Sequence record: MZ501109
Length of the DNA stretch: 64,000 nucleotides
Reading direction: 5' to 3' (one strand)
From: Escherichia phage TrudiRoth
The notes under the pieces are model-generated. The model worked only from the letters and a program-made list of their open reading frames with translations. It was not told where the DNA came from and ran no database searches. The position numbers were made by a program, and so were the translations under genes. This document shows positions 15,904-59,200 of the stretch, piece by piece. How positions within the stretch are numbered: position 1 is the stretch's first letter; each line of letters starts with the position of its first letter.

Positions 15904-16299
15904 TCAATCATCATTTAGGCCTGGGACATAGATTCCAATGCGATTTAATTGACCTTTAGCTTCTTCGAGAATATCTTCGGTGTACTCCCAAATATCATCT
16001 TCTACTTGCAAAAGATAAGGGGATTCACCAGTTTCGGGGTCACGTGTAATGGCTAAGCCACGTGGATGGAATATAGAGAAGTTGAGGGCAACAATCAAGC
16101 CCATACTGGACAATTCATTCCAGTCAGCTTCCCAACCATCATCTTCATCTTCGTCCACAAAGACACCTACACTAGGGTCTGTTACAGAAGTAAACGGAAA
16201 TGTTACACTAACCTTGTCAACCCCCAACCAACGTGCAAGGAGCCCTTCAGCACGCTCTACCAAACTAGGATCTATCTGACGCCAAAATACTTGTTCCAT
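15904..16299 (-). CDS. hypothetical protein (131 aa), paralog of the adjacent gene
   Basis: Shared segment W.ELS.MGL..ALN...F.P........TGE.P...V.....W.Y. Confidence 0.6.
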   Translation of the reverse strand: MEQVFWRQIDPSLVERAEGLLARWLGVDKVSVTFPFTSVTDPSVGVFVDEDEDDGWEADWNELSSMGLIVALNFSIFHPRGLAITRDPETGESPYLLQVEDDIWEYTEDILEEAKGQLNRIGIYVPGLNDD

Positions 16300-16308
16300 T
16301 CTGCCTCC

Positions 16309-16737
16309 TTAAGCAGTTAAACCTGGGATCATATACCCGAAACGACGAAGTTTCTGAATCCCCTCATTTACTTCCTCGGGCGAATATGACCAGCCCTCAC
16401 TTTCATTTACCTGGAAAGCAGGAGCTTCACCAGTGCGATAATTTACAATAAGACGGTGATTTGCAGGCATAAACAGCTTATGGTTCAAGGCAAAAACCAG
16501 ACCCATTTCATCGAGTTCTTTCCAGTCTACAATCTCTTCTACTCCCTCCCCTAAATCCACGCTAACTCCAATACACGGAGCTTCCTCTAGTGGGCCTTTA
16601 AAAGACAGGAAGATATCGTTATTCTCACACCAAATCTTAAGCAGATTGATGGTTTCATTGTACATACCATTAGGGAGAGAACGCCAGAAGTTGAGGAGCA
16701 TAGGATTTACCTCTTTCATGAAAATATTATTGAACAT
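16309..16737 (-). CDS. hypothetical protein (142 aa), paralog of the adjacent gene
   Basis: Alignable by eye over ~70 residues with the 131-aa neighbour. Confidence 0.6.
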   Translation of the reverse strand: MFNNIFMKEVNPMLLNFWRSLPNGMYNETINLLKIWCENNDIFLSFKGPLEEAPCIGVSVDLGEGVEEIVDWKELDEMGLVFALNHKLFMPANHRLIVNYRTGEAPAFQVNESEGWSYSPEEVNEGIQKLRRFGYMIPGLTA

Positions 16738-16739
16738 GC

Positions 16740-17255
16740 TTATACCTTAAGTTTCTGAAGAGCCTTACACATTTCAAGATCTGGACTAAATTCCAGCATA
16801 TAGCTTATAGCATTTAAATCTTGAAGGTTTATTCCAGTCCTGCCATTTACAATAACAGTAGGAAATTGGTACATCATAGCACCAGCATCATCTAGGACGC
16901 ACCAATGCTTGAGCTTATGTTTTTCTACGAAACGTAAGACAGAATTACCTCGAGATAAACCACCTCCAGTAAAATCTGTTGTACCAAGAAAACGATCGAT
17001 CAAACCGAGTCCGGTCATAATCTGAACGTTCTCCATTTCATTTCGTACAGAAAACCATGAAGAGACCCCAACAATCATTATTGGGGAGGGTTTAAGAAAG
17101 TTCTGAAAAGCCTGGAGTAATGGCTTATAAACCCAATCACTGCCAAAGAACAGCTTTTCACTGTCTGGAGCATAATGGTGAGAGATGCTCGAATTGAGCA
17201 CCCCATCAATATCCAGGAAAATCACAGGAGTATTACTTATTTCCACCAGTAGCAT
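16740..17255 (-). CDS. HAD-superfamily phosphatase (nucleotidase-like)
   Basis: HAD motif I FLDIDGVLN near N-terminus and motif IV VLDDAG; start probably the internal Met (MLLVEI). Confidence 0.6.
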   Translation of the reverse strand: MLLVEISNTPVIFLDIDGVLNSSISHHYAPDSEKLFFGSDWVYKPLLQAFQNFLKPSPIMIVGVSSWFSVRNEMENVQIMTGLGLIDRFLGTTDFTGGGLSRGNSVLRFVEKHKLKHWCVLDDAGAMMYQFPTVIVNGRTGINLQDLNAISYMLEFSPDLEMCKALQKLKV

Positions 17256-17418
17256 CCCACGTCCAGACTTTAACTTCATCAGTAAAAGGAACTGGAACCT
17301 TCAATTCACCTTTACCCCACATAACAGATAGGAACAGAGAATAAATGGTAATCATACCGATTAGGTTGACAAACCATACTAGACCTTTCCAGATACCCTT
17401 AAAAATCTTCTTCACCAT
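17233..17418 (-). CDS. small membrane protein (about 61 aa)
   Basis: Hydrophobic helix WFVNLIGMITIYSLFLSVMW; strong RBS aaggaggg before internal Met. Confidence 0.4.
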   Translation of the reverse strand: MVKKIFKGIWKGLVWFVNLIGMITIYSLFLSVMWGKGELKVPVPFTDEVKVWTWDATGGNK

Positions 17419-17581
17419 ATTCTCCCTCCTTAATAAGGAACTCTTTCCATTCTGCTGTATCCTCATAGATAACGCAGAAATCATCACTCTTCCATGAGAA
17501 GTCATCGGTAGCAAATTCGAAACGGTAGCACCAACTACCGTCCGGCCATACTAAAAGATCACACATGCTCTTGCGGTGCAT
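17399..17581 (-). CDS. hypothetical protein (60 aa)
   Basis: ORF track; RBS ggaagg upstream. Confidence 0.4.
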   Translation of the reverse strand: MHRKSMCDLLVWPDGSWCYRFEFATDDFSWKSDDFCVIYEDTAEWKEFLIKEGEYGEEDF

Positions 17582-18410
17582 AAATAGTTCCTTCCATAAA
17601 GGCTTCTACTTGACCAATGAAATGCTTGTTACCAAAAACTTCGGCAGCTCCAGCCCGCCATACAGTAACACCACGTTTCTCATACTCAAGCTGTTCATCA
17701 TAACGAACTTGAGGGTTAACAACCATCATCTTAGTTCCACGACATACAGCAGGAAATAGCTCCCAGTTGAAGTCGATTACTTGGTTGCTACAACCTACTA
17801 CAATAACCATATCATTGCTAGTAAGTGTATCAAACAGGTTAATCTGACCCATATACCACGGAGCCGTCTCACCAAAGAATGTTACGTTTGGTTTTACCCA
17901 TTCGTAATCCTCAGGGGCAATCGCAGTATACCCAACATCTTCGATGATTTGGTTGCGACCCTGACGATAGATCACCTCTTTCAAGTACCCGTGAGCGTGA
18001 ATGATTTCATCACGAGGGATACCAGCACGTTCCAGAAGGTCATCAACGTTAGTAGTGAAGTTCTTCACGCTATCCGCACCATAACGCTGGAACCATTCTG
18101 CAATTCGCAGATGGGCAATGTTAGGCTCAACAGTCTGTAATTCCTGACGACGCATGTTGTAGAACTCATGAGTCTTGAGATACAGATCGTTACCATCTTT
18201 ATCAATGCCAGGGAAACGAGCACTGAAGTAGTTAGGATCATCTTCACCACAGAAGCGACGGAAGCCAGCTTCAAAGTTAGGCAAGCTACATACTTCCTCT
18301 AGATCGTACTCATCCCACAAGGATTTCCCACTAGCAGTATCAGTACGGAAAGCACGAACACCACTATCTACACTCAAACCTGCACCACTAACAACGATTA
18401 GTCTACGCAT
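17559..18410 (-). CDS. Sir2-family (sirtuin-like) NAD-binding protein lacking a Zn-ribbon
   Basis: Sirtuin motifs GAGLSVDSG...FR, TTNVDDLLERAG...HAHG, VTFFGE, VVGCS; no CxxC pairs. Confidence 0.65.
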   Translation of the reverse strand: MRRLIVVSGAGLSVDSGVRAFRTDTASGKSLWDEYDLEEVCSLPNFEAGFRRFCGEDDPNYFSARFPGIDKDGNDLYLKTHEFYNMRRQELQTVEPNIAHLRIAEWFQRYGADSVKNFTTNVDDLLERAGIPRDEIIHAHGYLKEVIYRQGRNQIIEDVGYTAIAPEDYEWVKPNVTFFGETAPWYMGQINLFDTLTSNDMVIVVGCSNQVIDFNWELFPAVCRGTKMMVVNPQVRYDEQLEYEKRGVTVWRAGAAEVFGNKHFIGQVEAFMEGTIYAPQEHV

Positions 18411-18785: not shown

Positions 18786-19067
18786 TTAGTTCTGTACTGT
18801 AAATTCATTCTTATCACAGTGAGCATAATAATACCCATACATACGATAAATTTTCACAGCCTTAGTAGACCCCTTCGATTCTTCATAATCAATCCAGAGC
18901 CACTTGTCTTTACCTACATAATGTACCCGAAACTTCTTAACTTTCTTATCATTCCATGTTGCAACAACACGACGATAATCAAATCCGCCCAACCAATCTA
19001 GAGCCTTACGTTCTTCACTAGGCTCTCCAAGATGGGAAACATCTACTTTTGGAAGCAATTCGCTCAT
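18786..19067 (-). CDS. hypothetical protein (93 aa)
   Basis: ORF track; canonical promoter upstream. Confidence 0.5.
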   Translation of the reverse strand: MSELLPKVDVSHLGEPSEERKALDWLGGFDYRRVVATWNDKKVKKFRVHYVGKDKWLWIDYEESKGSTKAVKIYRMYGYYYAHCDKNEFTVQN

Positions 19068-19165: not shown

Positions 19166-21040
19166 TTATTTAGCGCGAATGTCTTGATGTTTCACTCGAC
19201 CCATAACCTCATGTTGTTTACCTGGGTTAAACGGACGAGCACCTGGATTTCCAAGATATCCACAAACTCGACGAGTTACCTCAAGAGTCTCAGGATCATG
19301 GTTGCCACAAATAGGGCATTTGAAACCATCCTCAGAAGCTATAGTTTCACCCAAGAACCCACATTCCCCACAAGAGTCTACTGGAGTATTAATACCGAAG
19401 TAATGAACTTTACTTGCAGCATAGTTAATAACCCATTCCAGTGCATCAGGGAATCGTTTCATATCCGGTAATTCCACATAGGAAATGCACCCACCAGAAG
19501 CAATAGGAGTAAAGTTAGACTCATAATCAAACTTCACATTTGGAGCAACCTTACGTTCTACATCAAGGTGATGGGAATTAGTGTAATATCCTTTAGCCAG
19601 AATATCTTCATGCTCTGGGAAATACTCACGGTCTAGGCGACAGAAGCGATCACATAGAGATTCAGATGGTGTAGCATACAGACTATACCCTAATTGAGTC
19701 TCTTCCTTCTTCTGATCAGCACGATCACGCATGTATTGTAGCACACGTTGAACGAACTTGATACAAGACTCAGACATTGTATCTACATCTTTACCAAACA
19801 TGAGTTGCAACATTTCGTGGCAGCCAATATATCCTAGGGATACAGAAGCACGCTTGTAGAAATGATCAAACACATATTCATCTGGCCCCAGACGTAATCC
19901 AAAGGCTCCTGACGTATAGAGGATGGGCGCAGCTTTAGCTTGAATGTATTTTAAGCGATCAACCCTCCACTCCAATGCTTTTAACGCGGTATCCACACGC
20001 AGCTCAAGCAGATCGAAGAATAGATCAATATTTCCTTCCGCTTCGATAGCGATTCGAGGAAGGTTTACGGAAACAACGCCTAAGTTGTTACGACCAGAAG
20101 TTTCACCATCTTCCGCAGCAGCCAGGAATGAACGACAGCCCATAGAGACTTTGTAGTCCCCCGTAACTTCTACAACCTTATCATAACTGATGTAGTCAGG
20201 ATACATACGTTCAGCAGTACATTTCATAGCTAACTTCTTGATATCATAGTTAACATCACCAGGTTTCATGTTTACGCCCTCACGCAAAACAAATACCAGT
20301 TTAGGGAAGATAGCTGTACGTTTATTGATACCCAAACCATCCATACGTACTTCTAGTATTGCTTTCTGTACAAGACGTGCTTCCCAAGAAGTTCCTAGAC
20401 CAAAACCAAAGGTAATAAACGGACTTTGACCATTAGAGTTGAACATCGTATTGATTTCATACTCCAGGCCCTGACAGGCATCGTAAACTTCTTTCTCAGT
20501 CATTTCCGTAGCCATTACAGATGCTTTAGCTTCATCCTTAGTCCAACGCTTTGCAAACGCATGATTCTTATCATAAGACTTACGAACATAAGGAGCCAAT
20601 ACTTCATCTAATCGGTCTACAGAAGTACCCCCATATTGATGTGAACTAACCTGAGTGATAATCTGAGCTGTGATAGCAGCCGCAGTAGTAATAGAGTTTG
20701 GTGTACTGATTTCAGCATTACCAACCTTCATACCATTCTTCAACATATCTTCCAAAGCAACCAGGCAACAGTTAGTCATACCTAACGCAGCGTAATCAGC
20801 ATCATGGAAGTGAATATCACCAATCATGTGAGCATTTCGAATCTGGATTGGCATTTCTTCCAGAATCAGATATTTACTCAATTCCCCTGCAAGCATATCC
20901 CTTTGTGTAGGGAAACGTTCTGAGGGCTTATTGGCATTATTAAACAGCAGCTCTTCATCTGCTGAACCTTCGATAATTTCTTTGCAGTTTCGAATCAAGG
21001 ACTGCATTCCTTTATACTTTAGTTCTTCATTGCGATTCAT
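19166..21040 (-). CDS. nrdD: anaerobic ribonucleoside-triphosphate reductase (class III RNR)
   Basis: C-terminal glycyl-radical motif TRRVCGYLGNP and upstream Cys-rich CGECGF...CPICG; 624 aa. Confidence 0.9.
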   Translation of the reverse strand: MNRNEELKYKGMQSLIRNCKEIIEGSADEELLFNNANKPSERFPTQRDMLAGELSKYLILEEMPIQIRNAHMIGDIHFHDADYAALGMTNCCLVALEDMLKNGMKVGNAEISTPNSITTAAAITAQIITQVSSHQYGGTSVDRLDEVLAPYVRKSYDKNHAFAKRWTKDEAKASVMATEMTEKEVYDACQGLEYEINTMFNSNGQSPFITFGFGLGTSWEARLVQKAILEVRMDGLGINKRTAIFPKLVFVLREGVNMKPGDVNYDIKKLAMKCTAERMYPDYISYDKVVEVTGDYKVSMGCRSFLAAAEDGETSGRNNLGVVSVNLPRIAIEAEGNIDLFFDLLELRVDTALKALEWRVDRLKYIQAKAAPILYTSGAFGLRLGPDEYVFDHFYKRASVSLGYIGCHEMLQLMFGKDVDTMSESCIKFVQRVLQYMRDRADQKKEETQLGYSLYATPSESLCDRFCRLDREYFPEHEDILAKGYYTNSHHLDVERKVAPNVKFDYESNFTPIASGGCISYVELPDMKRFPDALEWVINYAASKVHYFGINTPVDSCGECGFLGETIASEDGFKCPICGNHDPETLEVTRRVCGYLGNPGARPFNPGKQHEVMGRVKHQDIRAK

Positions 21041-22445: not shown

Positions 22446-22474
22446 TTGCAAAATGACCCAAAACAAAGTAGAAT
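22446..22474 (+). promoter_or_regulatory. sigma70 promoter (TTGCAA-17-TAGAAT) for nrdA
   Basis: tacTTGCAAaatgacccaaaacaaagTAGAATatttcc. Confidence 0.5.
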
Positions 22475-22512
22475 ATTTCCTAAATCCTGATAACTACAAA
22501 AAGGAAAGCCAA

Positions 22513-24846
22513 ATGAGCCATCGTATCGAAAAAGTAATTAAACGTGACGGTACTGTTCAGGACTTTGCTCCTGAAAAACTCAATGATTGGGCTGCATGGG
22601 CATGTAAAGATACTGACGTAAGTTGGTCTGCCGTAGTTATGGCTGCCCTGAAAAATCTACCCAAAGGTGTTGTAGACTCCGATACACTCCAAGATGTGTT
22701 AATTAAAGCCGCTGAAGGTCTTATCAAAGACAACCCAGCATATGATACTGTAGCAAAGGAATTACGTCTTGCGCAGATGCGTAAACGCCTATATGATTCT
22801 TTTGAACCTCCTTCTCTGCGTTTCTTCCACGATCATATGGTTCGTGTCGGCGCTTGGGAAGACATGAGTGCATGGATTAGCGATGATCAGTTTGAAGCTC
22901 TGAACCAAGTTATTGATCATGATCGTGATCGTTTATTCACCAGTGGTGGACTGAAACAGTTCTTCGACAAGTATTCCCGTCGTAATATTGCAACTGGTGA
23001 AATTTATGAAACCCCGCAGTTTGCCTACATGGGTATGGCAATGGCGATGTTATCTCAACCTAACTGGACAATTCTCGATGCAATCGACCTCTACAACGCA
23101 ATGTCACTCCATAAAATCAACGTGCCGACTCCACCTCTCGTGGGTCTTAGGAGCAGCGACCGCGGTTTTGCTTCTTGTTGTCTTGTTGATAGTACTGATA
23201 CCCTCGATTCAATCGACACAGCCGAGCACATCGTCTTCAAAATGGTCGCAGCCAGAGCGGGAATCGGGTATCATCTTGAAAGCCGATCAATTGCTGATCC
23301 GGTGCGAAATGGGGCATTCCCGCATTCCGGAAAACTGCCATATTATCGACACATTGACCGATCAGTAAAAGCTAACACTCAGCAAACCCGTGGTGGTTCT
23401 GCTACTGTGTCTTACCCATACTTCGATCCTGAAATCATTCAGTTGATGCAGGTTAAGCAGCAACGTGCTACAGACGAGAATAAAATCGATAAGATGGATT
23501 ACTCTCTGAGCTTTAACAACCTTCTGTTAAAACGTTACCTGAAAAATGAAGATATTACGCTAATGTCCTACTTCTACGCACCAGAAGTTCATGAAGCGTT
23601 TTATGGCGAAGATGAGGCTAAGTTTGAAGAAATCTACGTGGCAGCGGAGAAACGTGTGGCATCTCTTACAAAGATCGACCACGAAGGAAAAACAATTCCA
23701 GCAGCTCCTAGAATCTCTGCAAAAGAAATCCTAGATACTTGGTTACGTATCCGTATGGAAACAGGGCGTATGTATGCTCATCACATTGGTGAATCTAACC
23801 GTCATGGTAACTTCCTTGACCCGATTCGTATGACCAACCTTTGTGTTGAAATTACTCAGCCAACCCGTCCATTCCATCACATTACGGAGCTGTATAAGAC
23901 CCAAGATCAGTTAGACGATATGCGTCCAGAGGACATTGGTGAAGTATCTCTGTGTAACTTAGGTGGTGTTGTACTAGGTCGCATGGAATCTCTGGCTGAA
24001 TGGGAGAAAACTTGCTACATCCTTCTGAAATTCGTTGATACAATCATCGAGATTCAGGATTATCCATTCCCAACCATGGAATACACGGCTAAGAAACGTC
24101 GTAACGTTGGTATTGGTCTGATGAACGCAGCAGGTGCAATGGCAGCAGAAGGTTTGGCTTACGAAGGTGTTGAAGCACGTAACTGGATTCACCGTGAAGC
24201 TGAAAAGCTGTCCTACTTCCTGCACAAAGCCTCTGTACGTCTGGCCAAAGAACAGGGTGCATGTGACTGGTTTAATCGTACTAAGCCTTCACAAGGAACT
24301 CTGGTAATCGACACGTATAAGAAAACTGTTGATGAACTGGTAACTGTAGGTCTAGAAATGGATTGGGAATCTCTACGTGCAGATATCCTGAAATATGGTA
24401 TGCGTAACTCCGTTCTGACTGCTCAGATGCCGGGTGAAAGTTCCTCTGTACTGCTAGGTGTTACTAACTCTATTGAACCGCCTCGTAAGATTGTATCTAT
24501 CAAGGGTAGTGCAGTGAATAAAGTAATTGCAATTGCTCCAGGTGCAACTGATTGGGATACATTAATGAGCTATAAACTGGCTTATGATGTAGATCGTATC
24601 GAGTGGATCAAATGGGTAGCAACCATGCAGAAATTCTTCAGTCAGTCTATAAGTACGAATATGTACTATGACTACACCAAGTTTGAGAATGAAATTATTC
24701 CTGGCCCAGTAGTAGTTCGTGACTTCATGACTGCTGTTAAGTACGGTTGGAAAACTTTCTACTATGCAAACTTTAACACCGAGAATGGTGGTGGTGCAGG
24801 GGAAGAAACTGCTGCTGGATGCGCATCAGGTGGTTGTAACCTGTAA
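22513..24846 (+). CDS. nrdA: ribonucleoside-diphosphate reductase large subunit (class Ia)
   Basis: ATP-cone start MSHRIEKVIKRDGTVQDF; catalytic-region motifs NLCVEI and QMPGESSS; start placed at ATG 22513 after RBS aaaaaggaaag. Confidence 0.85.
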   Translation: MSHRIEKVIKRDGTVQDFAPEKLNDWAAWACKDTDVSWSAVVMAALKNLPKGVVDSDTLQDVLIKAAEGLIKDNPAYDTVAKELRLAQMRKRLYDSFEPPSLRFFHDHMVRVGAWEDMSAWISDDQFEALNQVIDHDRDRLFTSGGLKQFFDKYSRRNIATGEIYETPQFAYMGMAMAMLSQPNWTILDAIDLYNAMSLHKINVPTPPLVGLRSSDRGFASCCLVDSTDTLDSIDTAEHIVFKMVAARAGIGYHLESRSIADPVRNGAFPHSGKLPYYRHIDRSVKANTQQTRGGSATVSYPYFDPEIIQLMQVKQQRATDENKIDKMDYSLSFNNLLLKRYLKNEDITLMSYFYAPEVHEAFYGEDEAKFEEIYVAAEKRVASLTKIDHEGKTIPAAPRISAKEILDTWLRIRMETGRMYAHHIGESNRHGNFLDPIRMTNLCVEITQPTRPFHHITELYKTQDQLDDMRPEDIGEVSLCNLGGVVLGRMESLAEWEKTCYILLKFVDTIIEIQDYPFPTMEYTAKKRRNVGIGLMNAAGAMAAEGLAYEGVEARNWIHREAEKLSYFLHKASVRLAKEQGACDWFNRTKPSQGTLVIDTYKKTVDELVTVGLEMDWESLRADILKYGMRNSVLTAQMPGESSSVLLGVTNSIEPPRKIVSIKGSAVNKVIAIAPGATDWDTLMSYKLAYDVDRIEWIKWVATMQKFFSQSISTNMYYDYTKFENEIIPGPVVVRDFMTAVKYGWKTFYYANFNTENGGGAGEETAAGCASGGCNL

Positions 24847-24947: not shown

Positions 24948-25463
24948 TTGATAACACAAGATGAATTAAAAAGGATTCTGGAGTATAATCCAGATGAAGG
25001 AACATTTACTTGGTTAAATAACCAAGAAGTACACAATAAAGTAAGAGGACTACCTGCTGGTTGTTTAAAACCCCACTCAGTAGATCCTAACCGAAAAGAC
25101 TTAGTAATACAAATCAATGGTAAGAAATATCCTGCACAAAATATTGCTTTCCTGTACATGACAGGAAACTTACCTAAAGTTATGGTTGATCATATAGATG
25201 GAGATTCACTAAACTATAAGTGGACTAATCTAAGAGAAGCAGACTGGCAGTTAAATAGTCAAAATAGAAAAACCAGTAAAAACAATATATTGGGTACTAA
25301 GAATATTCGGAAGAAAGGGTCTGGATTTCAAGTTAGAAAATCCATTAACGGAAAAGAATACGTGAAAACTCTTCCAACTCTCGAAGAGGCGATAGAGTAT
25401 CGAGATTCTTTAATCCTCTCTATAACCAAAGACCCAACACTACTTAGAAACACAGATAAATAG
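24948..25463 (+). CDS. HNH homing endonuclease with AP2-type DNA-binding domain (TTG start), inserted between nrdA and nrdB
   Basis: HNH segment HNKVRGL...VDHIDGDSLNYKWTNLR; AP2-like GTKNIRKKGSGFQVRKSINGKEY; three paralogs elsewhere in window. Confidence 0.7.
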   Translation: MITQDELKRILEYNPDEGTFTWLNNQEVHNKVRGLPAGCLKPHSVDPNRKDLVIQINGKKYPAQNIAFLYMTGNLPKVMVDHIDGDSLNYKWTNLREADWQLNSQNRKTSKNNILGTKNIRKKGSGFQVRKSINGKEYVKTLPTLEEAIEYRDSLILSITKDPTLLRNTDK

Positions 25464-25471
25464 GAGAACTA

Positions 25472-26617
25472 ATGACAACTTTACTTAACTTAAACTGGGA
25501 TCATACCAATAAAGATCTATTTCTCGGTGATTCTCTTGGTATTGCAGATTATGTACGAGTAGCTCATCCAGAGCTAGAAAGGCTGGCGTTATTAGCTCGC
25601 TCTCAATTCTGGACTGAAACTGAAATCAGTCTGGAAGCTGATAAGAAACAATGGCCAAACCTTCCGCGTGATATTCAGGAAATTACTCTCCTGAACTTAG
25701 CATGGCAGACCCAAACAGATTCTTTCATTAGCCGTGCTCCTGAAGCAGCTATTATGCCGCTTGTAAGCCGTCCTGAATTGGAGGGTATGCTCAAGCAGTG
25801 GAGCTACTTCGAAGATCTGCATAGCCGTGCATATAGTAACATTATTCGTAACGTTCTGACTGATCCAGCAGAATTTATTGATTCTGTAACTAAAAACCAA
25901 GAAGCATTTGCACGTATCGCAGATTCTGTTGAACTGTTTGATGAATTGTATCTGTTAGGTCAGTATTTCCTTGCAGTACGTGATCATCGTGGTGATAATA
26001 CTTATCCAGAAACTGAGTTCCCTGAAGTTAAACGTGAAACTCAGGCTAAGCTGTTAGATGCTTACTTTGCAATCTACGGTCTGGAAGCAATGCAGTTCTA
26101 CGCATCCTTTGCATGTACCTTTGCTCTAGCAGAGAACGATATTCTGCAAGGTATTGCCAAGAACCTGCAACTAATCGCTAAAGATGAAGCTCTACATACT
26201 CAAATGTCTAAAGCTATCATCCAGATTATGTTCCAGCAGTTTGATAAAGATCTGGTAGACGAAGCATTAGCTAAAGCACCAGCACAACTCCTAAAAACTC
26301 TGAAAACTGAGATTGAATGGGGCCACTTTATCTTTAAAGGCCGCAGTCTGATTGGTTTGAACGCAGAATTGCTTGAAGAATACCTTTACTTTGTAGGACG
26401 TAACGCATTTATGCACATTGGTGTAGAATGGCCAAGCCACTTACCTGTAATTACTAAGAACCCTATTCCGTGGATTATGAACTGGCTGGATACTACTTCC
26501 TTACAGCCTGCCCCACAAGAAATCCAGATTGGTGCAGCATATCGTGTGGGTCAGGTAACTGAAACTTCTGCTGATACCCTGAAAGATCTGGGTAACGAAT
26601 TTGAGGGCATGTTCTAA
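25472..26617 (+). CDS. nrdB: ribonucleoside-diphosphate reductase small subunit
   Basis: 381 aa immediately downstream of nrdA; acidic/His residues spaced as in di-iron R2 proteins. Confidence 0.8.
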   Translation: MTTLLNLNWDHTNKDLFLGDSLGIADYVRVAHPELERLALLARSQFWTETEISLEADKKQWPNLPRDIQEITLLNLAWQTQTDSFISRAPEAAIMPLVSRPELEGMLKQWSYFEDLHSRAYSNIIRNVLTDPAEFIDSVTKNQEAFARIADSVELFDELYLLGQYFLAVRDHRGDNTYPETEFPEVKRETQAKLLDAYFAIYGLEAMQFYASFACTFALAENDILQGIAKNLQLIAKDEALHTQMSKAIIQIMFQQFDKDLVDEALAKAPAQLLKTLKTEIEWGHFIFKGRSLIGLNAELLEEYLYFVGRNAFMHIGVEWPSHLPVITKNPIPWIMNWLDTTSLQPAPQEIQIGAAYRVGQVTETSADTLKDLGNEFEGMF

Positions 26618-27147: not shown

Positions 27148-27998
27148 AGCAATATATTGAAACTGGAAAACGTATTCTTGAAGAGGGTGTATGGGTAACG
27201 AATCCTAGAACAGGGGTTCGTTGCCTAACCATTATTGATGCAGACTTTACCTTTAACGTAGGAGCAGGAGAACTGCCGCTAGTAACTACTCGTAAAGCAT
27301 TTGCTAAACAAGCAATAATGGAAATGATCGGATATCTCCGTGGGTACGACTCAGCAGCACAATTCCGCGCTATTGGTGTTAATACATGGAATGCTAATGC
27401 AAATGAAAATATTGCCTGGCTAGGTAATCCATTCCGTAAAGGCGAGGATGATATGGGACGAGTCTATGGTGTTCAAGGACGTCATTGGACTAATTCTGAT
27501 GGTATGGTATTTGATCAGTTAGCCAAAGTCTATCATAATTTGAAAAGAGGGATTGACGATCGTGGAGAAATTTTAACTTTTTGGAACCCTGGGGAATTTC
27601 GTAAAGGATGCCTACGTCCGTGTATGCATACCCATCAATTCTCTATTTTAGGTGATACACTATACCTAAACTCTTTCCAGAGGTCTAATGATTTCTTGCT
27701 GGGCCAAGTATTTAATATGGTGCAATGCTATGCACTTCTAGCTATTATGGCACAGATTACAGGTCTTAAGCCAGGTATTGCTCGTCAAAAGATTATTAAT
27801 CTTCATATCTATGAAGATCAGTATAATGTTCTGATGGAGCACAAGCAATTCGATCGTGAACCTTTTGCACCTCCTACTTTAGAAATCAATCCAAATATTA
27901 GAACTTTGGATGATGTATTAACGTGGGTAAGTAAGGATGATTTTACTGTTCGTGGCTATGAACACCATCCTGCTATTGCATATCCATTTACGGTGTAA
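27144..27998 (+). CDS. thyA: thymidylate synthase
   Basis: Catalytic-cysteine region [12 protein letters not shown] and LGQVFNMVQ. Confidence 0.8.
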
Positions 27999-28453: not shown

Positions 28454-29032
28454 ATGACAGCCATAGTAGCATTTAAATATAAAGATAAAGTATACTTAGC
28501 CGGTGATCGTATGGGTTCTAATGGCTATACGAAACTGCTGGTTAAAAATCCGAAAGTATTCAAAATCTCTGATGATTTGTGCTTCGGATACACTAGTTCC
28601 TTCTACATGGGACAATTACTAGAGCATAGCTTTACTGTACCACCACGTTTAGCAGATATTTCTGATGATAAATATTTATATACGGAAATAGTACCTAAAT
28701 TACGTGATATGTTTAACCAGAAAGATTTTGGCGAAAAGAAAAATGAAAAATATGCTGAACCTAATCTGGGACAATTTATTATGCTCTACAAAGGAAGAAT
28801 CTTTATTTTCCAATCTAATGCTTCTATTCTAGAAGTTGAATATGCCGGTGTAGGCTGTGGAGGAGAAGATGTACTTTCCAGTATTCGTACAGGTTTAGCT
28901 ATTGCGGATTGTCGAGCCACAGATTTAGATGTAGATGATATATTTGAAATCATTGATCTGGCTTTTACGCATTGTGCAGATTATATGTGTGGTGTATCTT
29001 CTCAACATGATATTTTAGTAATTGGAGAATAA
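28454..29032 (+). CDS. putative Ntn-hydrolase / HslV-like peptidase fold protein (192 aa)
   Basis: N-terminus MTAIVAFKYKDKVYLAGD resembles HslV TTIVSVRR...VIAGD with Thr at position 2; GVGCGG near C-terminus; inference only. Confidence 0.4.
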   Translation: MTAIVAFKYKDKVYLAGDRMGSNGYTKLLVKNPKVFKISDDLCFGYTSSFYMGQLLEHSFTVPPRLADISDDKYLYTEIVPKLRDMFNQKDFGEKKNEKYAEPNLGQFIMLYKGRIFIFQSNASILEVEYAGVGCGGEDVLSSIRTGLAIADCRATDLDVDDIFEIIDLAFTHCADYMCGVSSQHDILVIGE

Positions 29033-37743: not shown

Positions 37744-37772
37744 TTGCTTGAATGCTAAATTCTCTGTATAAT
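37744..37772 (+). promoter_or_regulatory. early-type sigma70 promoter (TTGCTT-17-TATAAT)
   Basis: attcgaTTGCTTgaatgctaaattctctgTATAATatatttataaatttgagagagg. Confidence 0.6.
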
Positions 37773-37802
37773 ATATTTATAAATTTGAGAGAGGAATCAA
37801 AT

Positions 37803-38858
37803 ATGATTAAGACTGGTCTAGTAATTGGTAAGTTCGCACCATTAACACGTGGTCATATTAACCTAATAAACACAGCAGCAACTATGTGTGAACGAGTTAT
37901 AGTTGTAGTTAGTCATGATAATCGCTGGCTGGATAAACAAAACACACGTGATCAGGAAGTCTTACAGTTAAAGAACCGACTTCGTTGGTTAGAACAAACT
38001 TACGCGGATATTGAGCACATTTCGGTAGAGTACATTATTGAAGATGATATTCCTGAATATCCGAATGGTTGGCCGGAATATGCTAGAATACTTAATGAAA
38101 ATTATGGACATTTGCCTGAGATCACCATTTTCTCTAGCGAACTAGACTATGATGCAGAATATAAGAAATATCTGCCGAAGTTTGGTCATTATATTGTAGA
38201 TTCTGATCGGACTCGTGTTCCAATCTCAGCTACAATGATTCGTAATGATCTTATGAAGTATTGGGAGTTTCTTCCTAGCGTAGTTCGTAAAGATTACGTG
38301 CGTAAGGTTGTAATCATTGGGACTGAAAGCTCGGGAAAGACTACTTTAACAAAATACCTTGCGAAGCTATACAACACTTCGTGGGTAGAAGAATATGGTC
38401 GAACGTATTGTGAAGTTGATCTAGTTGGTAACGAAAATCTGCTTACCAGCGAAGATTATAGTAAAATTGCGTTCAGACACAAAGAGCTAGAGTTTGAAGC
38501 AGAACGTACTGCAAATAAGATCATGTTTGTGGATACAAATGCTTTTATTACTGAGTTCTACCACAGACTTTATGAACATAGTAAGAATCCTGTGGTTACA
38601 GCAATTGCAAAAGAAGAACATTATGATTTAGTAATTGTTCTAGCGCCTACTGTCAAGTGGGTAGATGATGGTTTACGTATTAACTCCGATCGTTCAATTA
38701 CTTCTGAACTGTTCGAGCAGATGAAGAAAGAATTTCCAAATCAGTTCCCTGAAGGGCGTACTGTTTACATCGACTCTCCGGACTACAAAGTTCGTATGGA
38801 CGAAGCAGTAAACGCAGTAGACTGGCTGATTCATCACTTTAACGTTGGAGAGTTTTAA
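37803..38858 (+). CDS. NadR-like bifunctional NMN adenylyltransferase / ribosylnicotinamide kinase
   Basis: Nucleotidyltransferase motif GKFAPLTRGH at N-terminus; P-loop kinase IIGTESSGKTT in C-terminal half; start moved to ATG 37803. Confidence 0.7.
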   Translation: MIKTGLVIGKFAPLTRGHINLINTAATMCERVIVVVSHDNRWLDKQNTRDQEVLQLKNRLRWLEQTYADIEHISVEYIIEDDIPEYPNGWPEYARILNENYGHLPEITIFSSELDYDAEYKKYLPKFGHYIVDSDRTRVPISATMIRNDLMKYWEFLPSVVRKDYVRKVVIIGTESSGKTTLTKYLAKLYNTSWVEEYGRTYCEVDLVGNENLLTSEDYSKIAFRHKELEFEAERTANKIMFVDTNAFITEFYHRLYEHSKNPVVTAIAKEEHYDLVIVLAPTVKWVDDGLRINSDRSITSELFEQMKKEFPNQFPEGRTVYIDSPDYKVRMDEAVNAVDWLIHHFNVGEF

Positions 38859-38859
38859 T

Positions 38860-39537
38860 ATGACTAACTATCTCGTAAATGACTTTAAAAACTGGAAACC
38901 TCTGGAATATCTGTGGCTGTTCATAGCGGTTGTCTTCATTAGTTTAGCAAACTATAATGGTACAGCTCTAGATTGGGCTACTGCAATAACCAATGTGGTT
39001 TGTGTTATTCTGGTTGCAAAAGGACGTGTTTCCAACTATATTTGGGGCTTAGTGGGTGTTCTTACATATGGTATTACAGCTTTAAACGCAGATCTTTATG
39101 GTAACGCTGCACTAAACCTGCTATACTACGTTCCTATGCAGTTTTATGGAATGTACTTATGGCATAAAAATAAGCCAAGTAATCTGCCGGATGTTCCAAC
39201 TAAGGTTCTGACTAAAGCCCAAGCTCTGCTGACTCTAGGGATTCTAGCAGTAGCCACGTTAGGGTATGGTAGTTTCTTAGCTACTACGGCTGATCCATTT
39301 CCAATGTTGGATGCATTTACTGCGGTAGGTAGTGTGATCGCTATGTGGCTTATGGTTAAGCAGTATGCCGAGCAGTGGCTGATCTGGATTGCTATTAACA
39401 TTGGTACTGTGTACATTTGGCTTGTAACTGCTCAATCTACAGGTGCATCTTATGCAATCCTAGCAATGTGGCTAGTATTCTTAGGTAACTCTATTATGGG
39501 AGCCTATAAAGGATACTTTGTACGCGTTAACAAATAA
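38860..39537 (+). CDS. PnuC-like nicotinamide riboside/NMN transporter
   Basis: Polytopic membrane protein immediately downstream of the NadR-like gene; multiple Trp/Asn-rich TM helices. Confidence 0.55.
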   Translation: MTNYLVNDFKNWKPLEYLWLFIAVVFISLANYNGTALDWATAITNVVCVILVAKGRVSNYIWGLVGVLTYGITALNADLYGNAALNLLYYVPMQFYGMYLWHKNKPSNLPDVPTKVLTKAQALLTLGILAVATLGYGSFLATTADPFPMLDAFTAVGSVIAMWLMVKQYAEQWLIWIAINIGTVYIWLVTAQSTGASYAILAMWLVFLGNSIMGAYKGYFVRVNK

Positions 39538-46585: not shown

Positions 46586-46661
46586 GGGCGAATAGTGTCA
46601 GCGGGAGCACACCAGACTTGCAAGTCTGGTAGGGAGGGTTCGAGTCTCTCTTTGTCCACCA
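46586..46661 (+). tRNA. non-canonical tRNA (GCA-containing anticodon arm; loop of 8 or 6 nt)
   Basis: Acceptor gggcgaa/tttgtcc, D-arm gtgt-cagcggga-gcac, anticodon arm is a perfect 18-nt palindrome ccagacttgcaagtctgg, T-arm gagggTTCGAGTctctc, CCA. Confidence 0.45.
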
Positions 46662-47223: not shown

Positions 47224-47739
47224 ATGCTAACACAACAAGAATTAAAATCCGTGTTGTTATATAAACCAGATACTGGAGAGTTTTTCTGGAAATATAGATC
47301 TGATTTAGATAGTCAATGGAATAGTAAATATGCTGGAACTAGGGCAGGATTTATTAATGAACTAGGCTATTGGAAGATAACTCTAGGAAATACTAGCTGG
47401 TTAGCACATCGTCTAGCATTCTTATACATGACTGGGGAAATACCAGATCTAATTGACCACAAGGATCAAGATAAGTCCAATACTAAATGGGATAACTTAC
47501 GAATAGCCACTGTATCACAGAATCAGGCTAATGCTAAATTAAGGGTAGATAATACCTCTGGGTACAAAAATGTAACTTGGCATAAGCAAAGAAATAAGTG
47601 GAAAGTAGAAGTACGTAAAGATGGCAAACTCCATTATGGTGGACTTTTTACAGAACTAGATAAAGCTGTAAATAAAGCTAATAATCTTAGACGTGAGTTA
47701 TTCGGGGAATTTGCAGTATATGAAGAGTTTATGGGGTAG
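47224..47739 (+). CDS. HNH-AP2 homing endonuclease (paralog); 3' end overlaps tRNA-Ser
   Basis: HRLAFLYMTGEIPDLIDHKDQDKSNTKWDNLRIATVSQNQAN and AP2-like SGYKNVTWHKQRNKWKVEVRKDGK. Confidence 0.75.
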   Translation: MLTQQELKSVLLYKPDTGEFFWKYRSDLDSQWNSKYAGTRAGFINELGYWKITLGNTSWLAHRLAFLYMTGEIPDLIDHKDQDKSNTKWDNLRIATVSQNQANAKLRVDNTSGYKNVTWHKQRNKWKVEVRKDGKLHYGGLFTELDKAVNKANNLRRELFGEFAVYEEFMG

Positions 47740-48357: not shown

Positions 48358-48373
48358 AAATTAAAAAATTCAT

Positions 48374-48402
48374 TTGCCTTCTCTCTTATTTCTTGTTATT
48401 AT
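48374..48402 (+). promoter_or_regulatory. sigma70 promoter (TTGCCT-17-TATTAT)
   Basis: ttcatTTGCCTtctctcttatttcttgtTATTATatttatataaattaatgagaggg. Confidence 0.55.
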
Positions 48403-48432
48403 ATTTATATAAATTAATGAGAGGGAAACCAA

Positions 48433-48726
48433 ATGAAACGTTATCTTTCTGTTATGTTCCAAACTGGTGGTCAACGCTATACTTATGAATTTCCATCTTC
48501 TTGGAAGATCAAAGAAGGTGATCAAGTAGTAGTGTTAACACCGCGTGATGGTTTCAAGGTAGTAACGGTTAAGCAAGTATTTCCAAAAGATCACGAACCA
48601 TCTAAGGCTATTCAGTACAAGATGATTCATGGTCTGGTACGAAAAGTACCTAGAACAGAAGTCGAAGTAGATAAAACTGGGGAAGCTAAATACCAGTATA
48701 CCTCTTACTTAGACGAGTTGTTATAA
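48433..48726 (+). CDS. hypothetical protein (97 aa)
   Basis: ORF track, promoter and RBS. Confidence 0.55.
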   Translation: MKRYLSVMFQTGGQRYTYEFPSSWKIKEGDQVVVLTPRDGFKVVTVKQVFPKDHEPSKAIQYKMIHGLVRKVPRTEVEVDKTGEAKYQYTSYLDELL

Positions 48727-48932
48727 TGGGAATTACTTTCACAGAAAAGATTATGGGCAATGGTGTTATGATCATTACCGCATGGGATGGTAATCAGTGG
48801 TGTAGTGTTTCAGGTATTAAGCCTGAAGAACAAACACTAGAAAATATCTCAAAGATTAAGCGAAGAATGGCAGAACGTGCACGACTTCCAGGTGCGCCTA
48901 GAAATGGTAAACGTTCTGCAATTAAATGTTAA
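48726..48932 (+). CDS. hypothetical protein (68 aa)
   Basis: ORF track. Confidence 0.5.
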   Translation: MGITFTEKIMGNGVMIITAWDGNQWCSVSGIKPEEQTLENISKIKRRMAERARLPGAPRNGKRSAIKC

Positions 48933-48934
48933 TG

Positions 48935-49011
48935 CTTCGGTAGCTTAGCGATCTAAAGCACTCGGCTGATAACCGAGAGATCGGGGGTTTAAATCCCTCC
49001 CGGAGTACCAA
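48935..49011 (+). tRNA. tRNA-Ile (anticodon GAU)
   Basis: Acceptor gcttcgg/ccggagt, D-stem gctt/aagc, anticodon arm ctcgg-cuGAUaa-ccgag, T-arm gggggTTTAAATccctc, CCA. Confidence 0.7.
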
Positions 49012-49104
49012 ATTTAGGAAGTAAGACTATGCGTCCAGGAAAGTTTAAAAAAAAAAAAAAGCTAATTGGTCTAAAGAGTATAAAGAATATTTACTTAGTC
49101 TAGT

Positions 49105-49180
49105 AAAACATAATAGTTAGTTGGCAGAGTGGTTATGCACCTCCTTCATACGGAGCGACTACAGTGGTTCAAATCCACTA
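49105..49180 (+). tRNA. tRNA with CAU anticodon (Met/fMet/Ile2)
   Basis: Perfect acceptor agttagt/actaact, anticodon arm ctcc-uuCAUac-ggag, T-arm agtggTTCAAATccact, CCA. Confidence 0.6.
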
Positions 49181-49228
49181 CTAACTACCATAAAAAAGAG
49201 CTAGAGATAGCTAAATATAGGAGCAAGT

Positions 49229-49423
49229 GTGTTAACTGTTAAAATAATGTCTGCAAATGGTGGTGAAGAAATTCATGATGGTAATAGCGTAGGATTTAAT
49301 CCTAAAAATAAGAGTATTCATGTCTCGGGATTAGATCAAGCCATATTCCTAAAAGAGGATGAAGTCGCCTACGTTATGAATCAGAACGGTAAAACAGTTT
49401 CTGTTTACTACGGTAAGCTGTAA
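49229..49423 (+). CDS. hypothetical protein (64 aa)
   Basis: ORF track. Confidence 0.5.
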   Translation: MLTVKIMSANGGEEIHDGNSVGFNPKNKSIHVSGLDQAIFLKEDEVAYVMNQNGKTVSVYYGKL

Positions 49424-49521
49424 AGAACAGAGGATCAGGTCATTGTACCAGATCCTGCTGAGAAGAGAGTCCACATTCTATAAATGGCCGGGCGTGACAG
49501 CAGGAAGTAGACTGCAACTCC

Positions 49522-49752
49522 ATGCTATCCAGGAGTATAAATGTAGAAGCTAAGACTTTAGATAGCCATTGTCTTAGCGTGAGCAATCACGTAGTTGCAA
49601 CAGACCTGGAAGATCGCAACGTTAAAATCAAAGCTCCTGTGCTTATTAAACTGAATGGGACTATCAATCCACAAGCCGGACTACGAGCGATTATCGGGTA
49701 TTCACTTAATAAGCAAGCCTGCCTTCCAGTTTTTATCTTGCTTCTGGGTTAA
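49522..49752 (+). CDS. hypothetical protein (76 aa), weak
   Basis: ORF track only. Confidence 0.3.
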   Translation: MLSRSINVEAKTLDSHCLSVSNHVVATDLEDRNVKIKAPVLIKLNGTINPQAGLRAIIGYSLNKQACLPVFILLLG

Positions 49753-49790
49753 CAAAAAGCTGAGCCAAATTCTAACATCAGGGAGATCTA

Positions 49791-50159
49791 ATGAAAGCAT
49801 ATCAAAGTCTTAAGTCTGGCGTAATTAACATTGTTCATAACAATCAGATCATTCAACTATATTCTAAAGATGGTGAACTTAAACAGAAAGTTCTAGTCGA
49901 AGATCTAGAAGGTATCACACCTCACTTTGACCCTGAGGCCTTTCGCATTGTAGATGTGGAAGTGGTTCCTCAAGTCGAGGGTGGTCAGCACCTAAATGTC
50001 AATGTGTTAAGCCGTGATCAGCTTTTGGATGCACAGAAACATCCTGAAAAATATCCTCAGTTGACCATCCGTGTCTCTGGCTATGCTGTTCGATTTAACG
50101 CATTGACGCGTGAACAACAGAACGACGTTATTAGTCGTACATTTACTCAGGCGATATAA
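49791..50159 (+). CDS. grcA: autonomous glycyl-radical cofactor (GrcA/YfiD-like)
   Basis: [11 protein letters not shown]...[36 protein letters not shown] closely matches E. coli GrcA as I recall it, including glycyl-radical motif RVSGYAV. Confidence 0.85.
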
Positions 50160-50240
50160 TGGGGTTTGGATACGATTTCTCCCAGCTACGCAAGGTAGTC
50201 GAGCAAACTCCATTTATCTCCCAAGTTTTAGGAGAAATGT

Positions 50241-50540
50241 GTGGATCGAGCATTAAGACGCCATCACCGGCAACGTGTGAAAAACAATCGCAAAAAGTAT
50301 TGGACAGTCTTCCCACATGAAGAAAGTCCTAAGCGGTTAGGCATTATCACTACCACTCCTTGCATCTGTTCTTGTTGGATGTGTGGGAATCCTCGCAAAT
50401 ACTATAAGAATAGTAAAGCAGGCATGAAAATCTCGGAGATTAAAAAGATGGATGCAATGATTATGGGCATCACCTTTACAGGTGGTATCTCTGATGAATT
50501 CGACGGTTTTGTAACTCAGGATATTGTCGAAATTATCTAA
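50241..50540 (+). CDS. hypothetical Cys-rich protein (99 aa)
   Basis: ORF track. Confidence 0.45.
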   Translation: MDRALRRHHRQRVKNNRKKYWTVFPHEESPKRLGIITTTPCICSCWMCGNPRKYYKNSKAGMKISEIKKMDAMIMGITFTGGISDEFDGFVTQDIVEII

Positions 50541-50550
50541 TTAATAATAA

Positions 50551-50587
50551 ACCCCAGCTATTGAATAGGTAGTCTGGGGTTTTCTTG
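50551..50587 (+). terminator. Rho-independent terminator
   Basis: 7-bp stem accccag/ctggggt, then tttcttg. Confidence 0.55.
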
Positions 50588-50604
50588 TATGTAGGATTTT
50601 CGAA

Positions 50605-50790
50605 ATGAAAATTTTTAAAGTGAACTATAGCGGCCTGTGGTTAGGTGGTACAGCTATTGTCGTTGCAGAAACTGCAGAAGAAGCAATCGAACTGACTAGA
50701 AACCATAGAAGTTCTATAGAATTCGAGGATGTGACAGTAGAAGAACTCCCGAGCAGTGGGGTAGTATACAACAACAACGGAGATTACTGA
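50605..50790 (+). CDS. hypothetical protein (61 aa)
   Basis: ORF track. Confidence 0.45.
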   Translation: MKIFKVNYSGLWLGGTAIVVAETAEEAIELTRNHRSSIEFEDVTVEELPSSGVVYNNNGDY

Positions 50791-50848
50791 TGTTATATTT
50801 TGAAGTTCGCCCACATTAAGTTAATTTAAAAGACTTAATGGAGGTAAT

Positions 50849-51244
50849 ATGAGCCGTACATATCGTAAACAATCTGGTGATCGTCACTGGCGTGATGCAC
50901 ATCGTTCTACTTATAATTTTCATAGCACTAATATCCGTATTCCGTATACCTACACGGATAGGGATGGTAAGCAGTGGAAGTATTATCAAGTTCGATCCAA
51001 TGAAGCATGGGCTAAAACTTGGGATGAAATTGAGAAGGAGATTCAGGAAAATATCATCCGTAACGAGAAGAAAGATGGGCACTGGTGGGATTCTGTTAGT
51101 AGGAATGTTAAGTGGCATTCTAACAAAATGGTTCGTCAGGGAAACCGTCGCGAACTTCATCGTGTGATGAAAGATCCAGAAAATTACGACTATAATCGCG
51201 ATCATGATCTGCGTAAGCGTGGGTTATGGTGGTGCTACGACTAA
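50849..51244 (+). CDS. hypothetical basic protein (131 aa)
   Basis: ORF track; RBS ggaggt. Confidence 0.5.
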   Translation: MSRTYRKQSGDRHWRDAHRSTYNFHSTNIRIPYTYTDRDGKQWKYYQVRSNEAWAKTWDEIEKEIQENIIRNEKKDGHWWDSVSRNVKWHSNKMVRQGNRRELHRVMKDPENYDYNRDHDLRKRGLWWCYD

Positions 51245-51261
51245 TTTCGTAAATAATTCAT

Positions 51262-51290
51262 TTGCTAAAACCCTCTCCTTTTGATATAAT
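51262..51290 (+). promoter_or_regulatory. early-type sigma70 promoter (TTGCTA-17-TATAAT)
   Basis: ttcatTTGCTAaaaccctctccttttgaTATAATatttatataaattgatgagaggg. Confidence 0.6.
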
Positions 51291-51320
51291 ATTTATATAA
51301 ATTGATGAGAGGGCTTTGAA

Positions 51321-51593
51321 ATGAAAGAAGCAGAAATTAATGAAATGGCTAGAATATTCATCGTTTCCTATATGCAAGGCAGTTGCAATAGTTTATTCGA
51401 GTCTGCTATAGTATTTCAGGAAATGTTAGCCGAGAAAGGCGTACATATGGAAGATACTGAAATTGAAGATCTTCTAATGGAAACTTGTAGTAGTGCTGAA
51501 GTCTTCCAGTGTGGTAACTGTAATTGGTGGTGTCCAGAGCATGATCGTTCTGAAGAAGGTTCCTACTGTTCCGATTGTGAAGGAGAAGAATAA
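51321..51593 (+). CDS. hypothetical Cys-rich protein (90 aa)
   Basis: ORF track. Confidence 0.5.
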   Translation: MKEAEINEMARIFIVSYMQGSCNSLFESAIVFQEMLAEKGVHMEDTEIEDLLMETCSSAEVFQCGNCNWWCPEHDRSEEGSYCSDCEGEE

Positions 51594-58393: not shown

Positions 58394-58917
58394 TTACCCA
58401 AGAAAGATTGAAGGAGCTTCTAGAGTACAATCCAGATACAGGGATATTTATATGGAAGAGCCGAAAGATAGATAGAAGTGGTTTTAACAAGCAATTCGCA
58501 GGAAAAGTTGCTGGCAATCCTCAAAATAACGGTTATATCAATATTACTGTTGATTCCGAAGTTCATGGGGCACATAGATTAGCTTTTCTTTACATGGAAG
58601 GCTATATGCCTGCAAGGGTAGACCACGAAAACATGGTTAGGTCTGATAACAAATGGCTTAACCTACGAGAAGCTACAGTCTCTCAAAATGGTGCTAATGC
58701 GTTAAAGTATTCTAACAATAGTTCTGGATATAAGAACGTATACTGGACAAAGAAAACGTGTAAATGGCAAGTACAGGTTATGAAAGATGGTAAATCCTAC
58801 TCGGGAGGATACTTCACAAACCTCAAAGATGCTGTAGAAACTGCCAATGAGTTAAGATTTGAATTATTTGGGGAATTTGCCCTATATGAACCATTTAAAG
58901 GAGATAAACATGAGTAA
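58390..58917 (+). CDS. HNH-AP2 homing endonuclease (paralog, GTG start)
   Basis: HRLAFLYMEGYMPARVDHENMVRSDNKWLNLREATVSQN and AP2-like SGYKNVYWTKKTCKWQVQVMKDGK. Confidence 0.75.
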   Translation: MITQERLKELLEYNPDTGIFIWKSRKIDRSGFNKQFAGKVAGNPQNNGYINITVDSEVHGAHRLAFLYMEGYMPARVDHENMVRSDNKWLNLREATVSQNGANALKYSNNSSGYKNVYWTKKTCKWQVQVMKDGKSYSGGYFTNLKDAVETANELRFELFGEFALYEPFKGDKHE

Positions 58918-59200
58918 ATTAGTATATCTATTAAAGGGATCTACCTGCAATCCGTGCAAAATGTTCGAGCCTGTATTCGATAAAGTAGTACAGGACTACA
59001 GTCTAGAAGTTCATAAAGAGACTGATAACACAGAACTTATGCAGAAATTTGGCGTTCGTCAGGTTCCTGTAGTAGTTCTAGCAGATCGTCTCCCTAATGG
59101 TCGTGTGGAAGCCAACCACATTCTGATTGGTCGTCAGCTTCGTAAAGAAACTATGCACGATGCAATCAAAAACTTCCTGGAAGATAATCCAGAAGATTAA
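58877..59200 (+). CDS. thioredoxin/glutaredoxin-like protein (CxxC)
   Basis: MSKLVYLLKGSTCNPCKMFEPVF; start moved to ATG 58877. Confidence 0.55.
   Translation: MPYMNHLKEINMSKLVYLLKGSTCNPCKMFEPVFDKVVQDYSLEVHKETDNTELMQKFGVRQVPVVVLADRLPNGRVEANHILIGRQLRKETMHDAIKNFLEDNPED

Follow-up and report, generated by a model that had tools for sequence, protein, structure and literature searches.

The window analysed here, a stretch of 64,000 nucleotides from Escherichia phage TrudiRoth (MZ501109), carries at positions 49791..50159 (+ strand) a gene for a GrcA-type autonomous glycyl-radical cofactor, the homologue of T5.056 and of T4 vs.6/Y06I. The ORF begins with ATG, ends with a stop codon and encodes a standalone protein of 122 aa without a catalytic barrel, within the ~115-130 aa usual for GrcA/YfiD-type cofactors; a Shine-Dalgarno sequence, GGGAG, can be read from the sequence at 49781..49785 (+), 5 nt 5' of the ATG. 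The protein consists of two halves. The N-terminal half (aa 1-61; 49791..49973, +) is probably a divergent version of the GrcA N-terminal part and is predicted to form a beta-sheet, and the C-terminal half (aa 62-122; 49974..50156, +) is a glycyl-radical domain that corresponds to residues ~698-758 of PflB and 61-127 of YfiD. Within this domain the glycyl-radical motif RVSGYAV (50070..50090, +) was read from the sequence and falls in invariant columns of a 92-sequence family alignment; the GGC codon at 50079..50081 (+) specifies Gly97, which is equivalent to Gly734 of PflB and Gly102 of GrcA. The observation that this ORF is real and GrcA-like was thus confirmed.

The window belongs to a T5-like phage (Demerecviridae, Epseptimavirus). 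Its closest record is E. coli phage Shin27 (LC788709.1); the two share 99.7% identity over 25 kb, and most of the window is collinear with Shin27. A DNA polymerase, a helicase, nrdA (22453..24846), nrdB (25472..26617), nrdD, a cluster of 22 tRNA genes and many small ORFs are encoded. HNH homing-endonuclease ORFs that match T5 heg genes are found between nrdA and nrdB (24948..25463, +) and inside the tRNA cluster (47224..47739, +). Over the tRNA region (~44.3-49.4 kb) identity to Shin27 falls to 85-92% or breaks off, and ARAGORN reports there a tRNA with a four-base anticodon (tgca) at 46586..46661 (+); Shin27 has tRNA-Ala genes in the matching region. A phage NAD+ salvage module is located at 37752..39537 (+), where a gene for a NadR-like nicotinamide-nucleotide adenylyltransferase/ribosylnicotinamide kinase (AAA_28 + CTP_transf_like) is followed by one for a PnuC-type transporter, the latter named after the Shin27 annotation.

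The GrcA-like gene sits at the end of the tRNA cluster. Upstream of it are the last two tRNA genes of the cluster, tRNA-Ile(GAT) at 48934..49010 (+) and tRNA-Met(CAT) at 49115..49190 (+), both detected by ARAGORN and arranged in the same order in T5, T5_ev219, Spc35 and SHSML-45. The position of the gene, after tRNA-Ile/tRNA-Met and before a Cys-rich small ORF, is kept in Tequintavirus and Epseptimavirus. A generic promoter and terminator scan of 48700..51400 gave counts at the level of shuffled sequence, and transcription signals were called by homology to annotated T5 signals. A sequence at 48364..48428 (+) resembles the annotated T5 promoter P11 (92% identity over 65 nt to T5 28597..28671) and, judging from the T5 annotation, is likely to be the start of the GrcA-like transcription unit. 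A rho-independent terminator (CCCCAG...CTGGGG followed by a U-run, -19.1 kcal/mol) lies at 50552..50583 (+); it is 97% identical to T5 27219..27251, which is the terminator annotated after T5.055. The likely order of the unit is therefore promoter, two small ORFs, tRNA-Ile, tRNA-Met, one or more small ORFs, the GrcA-like gene, the Cys-rich ORF and terminator. By the same analogy to T5, the GrcA-like gene is probably transcribed together with the last tRNA genes from the P11-type promoter, and it would be expressed early.

The Cys-rich ORF (50241..50540, +), which appears to share a transcript with the GrcA-like gene, is the T5.055 homologue and matches phrog_4499 (2.7e-39, 88-aa profile). It encodes a conserved basic protein of 99 aa, CICSCWMCGNPRK, which contains CICSCWMC and is zinc-knuckle-like in look. 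Relatives are found in Erwinia jumbo phages and in phages of Rhizobium, Psychrobacter and Acinetobacter.

The first-pass annotation had proposed, from the letters alone, that the 122-aa protein closely matches E. coli GrcA and shares its RVSGYAV motif. Profile and pairwise searches bear this out. Pfam Gly_radical (PF01228) matches the protein with E=4e-18, and with phmmer it matches E. coli YfiD/GrcA (PDB 6OWR) with E=2e-29 and PflB (1H16) with E=1.6e-26. When E. coli GrcA from the MG1655 record was used as a tblastn query against the window, 74% identity over 74 aa was obtained (E=2e-31), so the alignment to GrcA is not a poor one. Over the C-terminal 60 aa, identity is 80% with E. coli GrcA and 78% with the PflB C-terminus; the core of 19 residues around the radical glycine (PflB Gly734) is invariant and identical in the phage protein, GrcA and PflB, and all 31 of the 31 invariant columns of the 92-sequence family alignment are kept in the phage protein. 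At the sequence level, the similarity to glycyl-radical domains is far above chance. At 59057..59173 tblastn gave another GrcA-like fragment (E=0.04), which was rejected as a chance match because it lies within a thioredoxin-domain gene (phrog_22). This gene (58859..59200, +) corresponds to T5.037, a 'putative thioredoxin' in the T5 annotation, and its product may serve the phage ribonucleotide reductases as a reductant.

Over its full length the protein matches phrog_1209 of the PHROGs collection (residues 1-122 against positions 1-121 of the 121-position profile, E=7e-47) and is 52% identical to T4 vs.6/Y06I, represented by the RB68 vs.6 copy (E=1e-39). Against the NCBIfam GrcA equivalog TIGR04365, it scored 118.3 bits versus a cutoff of 170 bits, and only aa 54-121 were aligned. 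The score stays under the cutoff because the N-terminal half diverges, sharing 21% of its residues with E. coli GrcA and 31% with T4 vs.6, and the protein is therefore placed in a GrcA-like phage subfamily rather than among strict bacterial GrcA equivalogs. It should be noted that the N-terminal half does not appear to be foreign, as judged by its sequence: it carries a pattern common across a 122-sequence alignment, consisting of M-K-A/G-Y-Q, G-x-I, a hydrophobic strand with SK at its end, an acidic stretch and R-x-V. The alignment of aa 25-50 with PflB 676-697 had raised the possibility that the T5-type protein was derived straight from pflB; this was rejected, the family alignment showing the common GrcA N-terminal pattern.

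A model of the phage protein was built by AlphaFold2 (AF2) with the family alignment (mean pLDDT 77.5). For the C-terminal domain the best PDB match found by Foldseek was YfiD 6OWR (TM 0.74, target-normalised; 80% identity), and the next matches were C-termini of other glycyl-radical enzymes. Residues 62-72, the strand expected to insert in the PFL barrel, are of low confidence in the isolated model. The N-terminal half was modelled as a beta-sheet with pLDDT 84-90, and a bacterial GrcA control (P0098) gave the same topology. By NMR, residues 1-60 of YfiD are disordered (PMC8683613), and it was considered whether the phage N-terminus is ordered or foreign, unlike that of YfiD. This idea was dropped, because the bacterial control yields the same ordered sheet in AF2 and the predicted sheet does not discriminate between the phage and the bacterial N-terminus. 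The prediction shows only that the two N-termini are equivalent in predicted topology, and no difference between them.

To assess selection, the gene was compared by the Nei-Gojobori method with the copies of T5_ev219 (90% identity to the phage protein), Spc35 and SHSML-45. Overall dN/dS was 0.07-0.18, with dS up to 0.6. By half, it was 0.09-0.20 for the N-terminal and 0-0.11 for the C-terminal part; these low values indicate that purifying selection acts on both. Homologues were detected by tblastn in 1,584 phage records. Among the matches listed, those of T5-like phages share at least 90% identity and those of T4-like phages ~50%, and jumbo, Klebsiella and Aeromonas phages align over the C-terminal part. 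In a database of 5.8 billion proteins, the T5-type copies cluster closely together (at least 86% identity, 226-259 bits), all others scoring at most 135 bits; the longer contigs with T5-type copies are ~105-120 kb. Most of the records with a homologue are of phages that infect Escherichia, Salmonella, Klebsiella, Shigella, Enterobacter, Aeromonas and Yersinia, which are facultatively anaerobic hosts that have PFL.

That T5-like phages have a GrcA-type gene is already known. In the reference T5 annotation the gene is T5.056 and bears a note on its glycyl-radical domain, recognised via InterPro IPR001150 (the locus matches E. coli GrcA with E=4e-33), and hundreds of T5-like records name it. Many records call it 'autonomous glycyl radical cofactor', 'glycyl radical cofactor' or, in a looser sense, 'pyruvate formate-lyase'. 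As names in GenBank, 'pyruvate formate-lyase', 'ribonucleotide reductase subunit' and also 'acetyltransferase-related protein' are misnomers, because the protein lacks the catalytic barrel of ~700 residues with Cys418/Cys419; 'GrcA-like glycyl-radical cofactor' would be preferable. Our literature search found no work on the T5-type GrcA protein, nor on T5 nrdD without nrdG.

A second glycyl-radical protein is encoded by nrdD (19166..21040, -), the class III anaerobic ribonucleotide reductase (Pfam NRDD 1.3e-172; 54% identity to E. coli NrdD), whose radical motif RRVCGYLG lies in the Zn-ribbon C-terminus. The first-pass annotation had described the GrcA-like gene as encoded alongside nrdD. The two are indeed present in the same genome, but nrdD lies ~29 kb away on the opposite strand in a separate transcription unit, and the T5 annotation gives nrdD a promoter and a terminator of its own. 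The alignment of phage NrdD (624 aa) with that of E. coli begins only at residue 113, and phage NrdD, unlike phage NrdA, has no ATP-cone Pfam hit; the N-terminal allosteric ATP-cone is therefore missing. Farther downstream of nrdD, 15904..18410 (-) encodes a Sir2-family protein (17559..18410), a HAD_SAK_2 phosphatase-like protein (16740..17279) and tandem DUF7415 paralogues (16309..16737 and 15904..16299).

Both proteins require an activase that installs the radical, and the first-pass annotation had described the window as having no nrdG activase, with no radical-SAM activase gene seen near nrdD. E. coli NrdG, E. coli PflA and T4 NrdG, taken from annotated records, were used as queries with tblastn, phmmer and a small HMM. 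The searches covered the window as well as the whole genomes of Shin27 and T5, and the positive controls, GrcA and NrdD, came up with E from 1e-31 to 0. In the window, no NrdG or PflA activase was detected by any of the three methods, all matches having E>=0.04 and the best of them (0.04-0.5) being spurious. A six-frame scan of the window found CxxxCxxC only in ORFs of at most 102 aa from stop to stop, and in no protein of ~150 aa or more. This part of the first-pass annotation therefore stands. It had also left room for an activase just outside the window or elsewhere in the genome. No NrdG or PflA was found by tblastn, phmmer or HMM in the complete genome of Shin27, which is ~99% identical to the window, nor in that of T5, and for these two genomes the absence of nrdG extends beyond the window. 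In both, CxxxCxxC also occurs in stop-to-stop segments of 148-174 aa, and these have no activase homology. In other phages, NrdG homologues were found in 2,273 records.

Two small ORFs of the window were considered as activase candidates and rejected. One of them, of 93 aa (18786..19067, -), lies directly downstream of nrdD and was the top match of the activase HMM (E=0.04) and of tblastn (E=0.54). Its GGFD-(25 aa)-GKDKWLWIDY is in register with GGDP-(25 aa)-GKDIWVWTGY of NrdG, which would fit a relic of nrdG. However, these NrdG-like motifs are not kept in divergent members of its own family, hhalign gave a probability of 0.5% (E=0.12), NCBIfam and Pfam gave no match, and T5 has an unrelated gene at that position. 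The family of this ORF, without a known domain, comprises 10 clusters, all from T5-like phages. The other candidate is the Cys-rich ORF at 50241..50540, whose CICSCWMC contains CxxxCxxC as a mini-activase might. With its 99 aa it has no Pfam hit and matches T4 NrdG with E=2.4 only; it belongs to phrog_4499, whose relatives in Rhizobium, Psychrobacter and Acinetobacter phages include phages of aerobes.

With no phage activase found, the plain reading is that both phage glycyl-radical proteins use host ones; E. coli K-12 encodes NrdG, PflA and PflB. A hint in the same direction, though a weak one, comes from the sequence around the NrdD radical glycine: 24 of 30 residues match E. coli NrdD, compared with 18 of 30 for T4 NrdD, which may reflect compatibility with, or dependence on, host NrdG. 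GrcA-type proteins are described as obtaining their radical from the PFL-activating enzyme PflA, not from NrdG (PMC8683613, PMC13450708). The absence of nrdG is thus irrelevant to the GrcA-like protein, and the link between the two that the first-pass annotation had implied does not hold; BLASTP detected no similarity between the GrcA-like protein and phage NrdD (E=16).

What could the phage gain from such a protein? We consider it probable, by analogy with its relatives, that the gene repairs oxygen-damaged PFL of the host. During anaerobic or microaerobic infection of E. coli or Salmonella, host PflA would abstract a hydrogen and install the radical at Gly97. Next, the C-terminal domain (aa 62-122) would substitute for the damaged or oxygen-cleaved glycyl-radical domain of host PflB, possibly also of TdcE, and pass the radical to Cys419. 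In this way the conversion of pyruvate into acetyl-CoA plus formate would be restored, and the supply of energy and acetyl-CoA maintained to the benefit of the phage. The N-terminal half may help to recognise cleaved PFL, as in YfiD. T4 Y06I reconstitutes oxygen-cleaved PFL (Wagner et al. 2001, BBRC 285:456, cited in PMC8683613), and PMC8683613 names YfiD and T4 Y06I as the only two experimentally validated PFL spare parts. Rescue of damaged host PFL, as for the T4 homologue, had been suggested by the first-pass annotation, and homology points the same way (78-80% identity over the domain, 52% to Y06I). It should be mentioned that the N-terminal half, only 21% identical to that of E. coli GrcA, is the one implicated in the binding of cleaved PFL (PMC8683613), and that the phage protein fits host PFL is therefore an assumption.

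The same domain could also be supplied to full-length PflB that is radical-less or inactive, in which case the protein would boost PFL rather than repair it and more fermentative flux would result regardless of oxygen damage. This is a variant of the repair mechanism, and the sequence does not separate the two; activation of YfiD appears to be disfavoured with undamaged PFL in the account of PMC8683613, which counts against boosting, and we regard it as unlikely. Still less credit is given to a decoy role, in which the protein would titrate host PflA or block cleaved PFL and thereby shut host fermentation down. An abundant early protein with the PflA recognition loop could compete with PflB, and the phage supplies no activase of its own. 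However, the whole glycyl-radical domain is kept with an invariant radical glycine, including the strand and helix that pack in the PFL barrel and not just the loop recognised by PflA, and the T4 homologue is reported to restore activity and not to inhibit it (Wagner 2001, via PMC8683613).

Another possibility, that the gene is a remnant of a captured host pflB or grcA that has lost its function and is decaying, would agree with its shortness, its place in a mosaic tRNA region and its score under the NCBIfam GrcA cutoff. The selection test refutes this (dN/dS 0.07-0.18 at dS up to 0.6, with both halves constrained), and the frame is intact and its position kept across two genera and hundreds of genomes, which makes decay highly improbable. 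The presence of two glycyl-radical proteins in one genome might also suggest that the GrcA-like protein serves phage NrdD as a replacement radical domain. We give this next to no weight: similarity between the two is not detectable by BLASTP (E=16), the phage protein is of the PFL type throughout as against RRVCGYLG of NrdD, 29 kb lie between the genes, which belong to different units, and spare parts are known only for formate-lyases as presented in PMC13450708.

If the gene indeed repairs host PFL, large virulent enterobacterial phages would possess, in NrdD and a PFL spare part, a small toolkit for anaerobic or microaerobic conditions that suits infection in the gut. Counting against the repair reading, T5 has classically been studied under aerobic conditions. 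Unlike T4, T5-like phages would leave both radical-installing steps to the host, and it is therefore predicted that anaerobic infection depends on host nrdG and pflA; if host activases serve both proteins, these two genes would be conditional host factors for anaerobic infection of the T5 type. A broader proposal, that T5-like phages run NrdD and the GrcA-like protein entirely on host NrdG and PflA and that the constrained, divergent N-terminal half tunes the spare part, is put forward as a speculation whose two parts are rather doubtful when taken together. If true, tuning might mean, for example, binding of undamaged PFL or TdcE, and not only of oxygen-cleaved PflB.

Among the known systems, T4 Y06I (vs.6) is like the phage protein in size (120 versus 122 aa), in its MKAYQ start, in architecture and in its membership of phrog_1209. 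Y06I has been tested biochemically; for the T5-type protein the function is predicted by homology. T4 and T5-like phages are alike in encoding a GrcA-type protein and no PflA. In contrast, T4 has its own nrdG in the nrdD cluster, separated from nrdD only by mobC, and T5-like phages are without nrdG. The two also differ in the glycyl-radical domain: over 60 aa, that of T4 vs.6 (RB68) shares 100% of its residues with E. coli GrcA and that of the T5 type 80%, and the T5-type domain has phage-type signatures common to jumbo-phage copies, from which T4 vs.6 differs. The N-terminal half of the T4-type vs.6 (RB68) is 27% identical to E. coli GrcA despite this 100% identity in the C-terminal domain. 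The vs.6 pattern suggests that in the T4 lineage the gene recently underwent exchange or gene conversion with that of the host; the copy of the T5 type does not have this pattern. With the C-terminal domain of PflB (1H16) the phage protein shares 78% identity over 60 aa and an identical 19-residue core, and it differs from PflB in being without the catalytic barrel of ~700 residues. E. coli GrcA/YfiD is, like the phage protein, a standalone protein of ~14 kDa with its glycine in RVSGYAV and with the same AF2-predicted topology in both halves. Compared with it, the phage protein has an N-terminal half of only 21% identity and a small insertion, DGELKQ, and the phage gene is placed under a phage promoter, whereas E. 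coli grcA has the host's regulated promoter.
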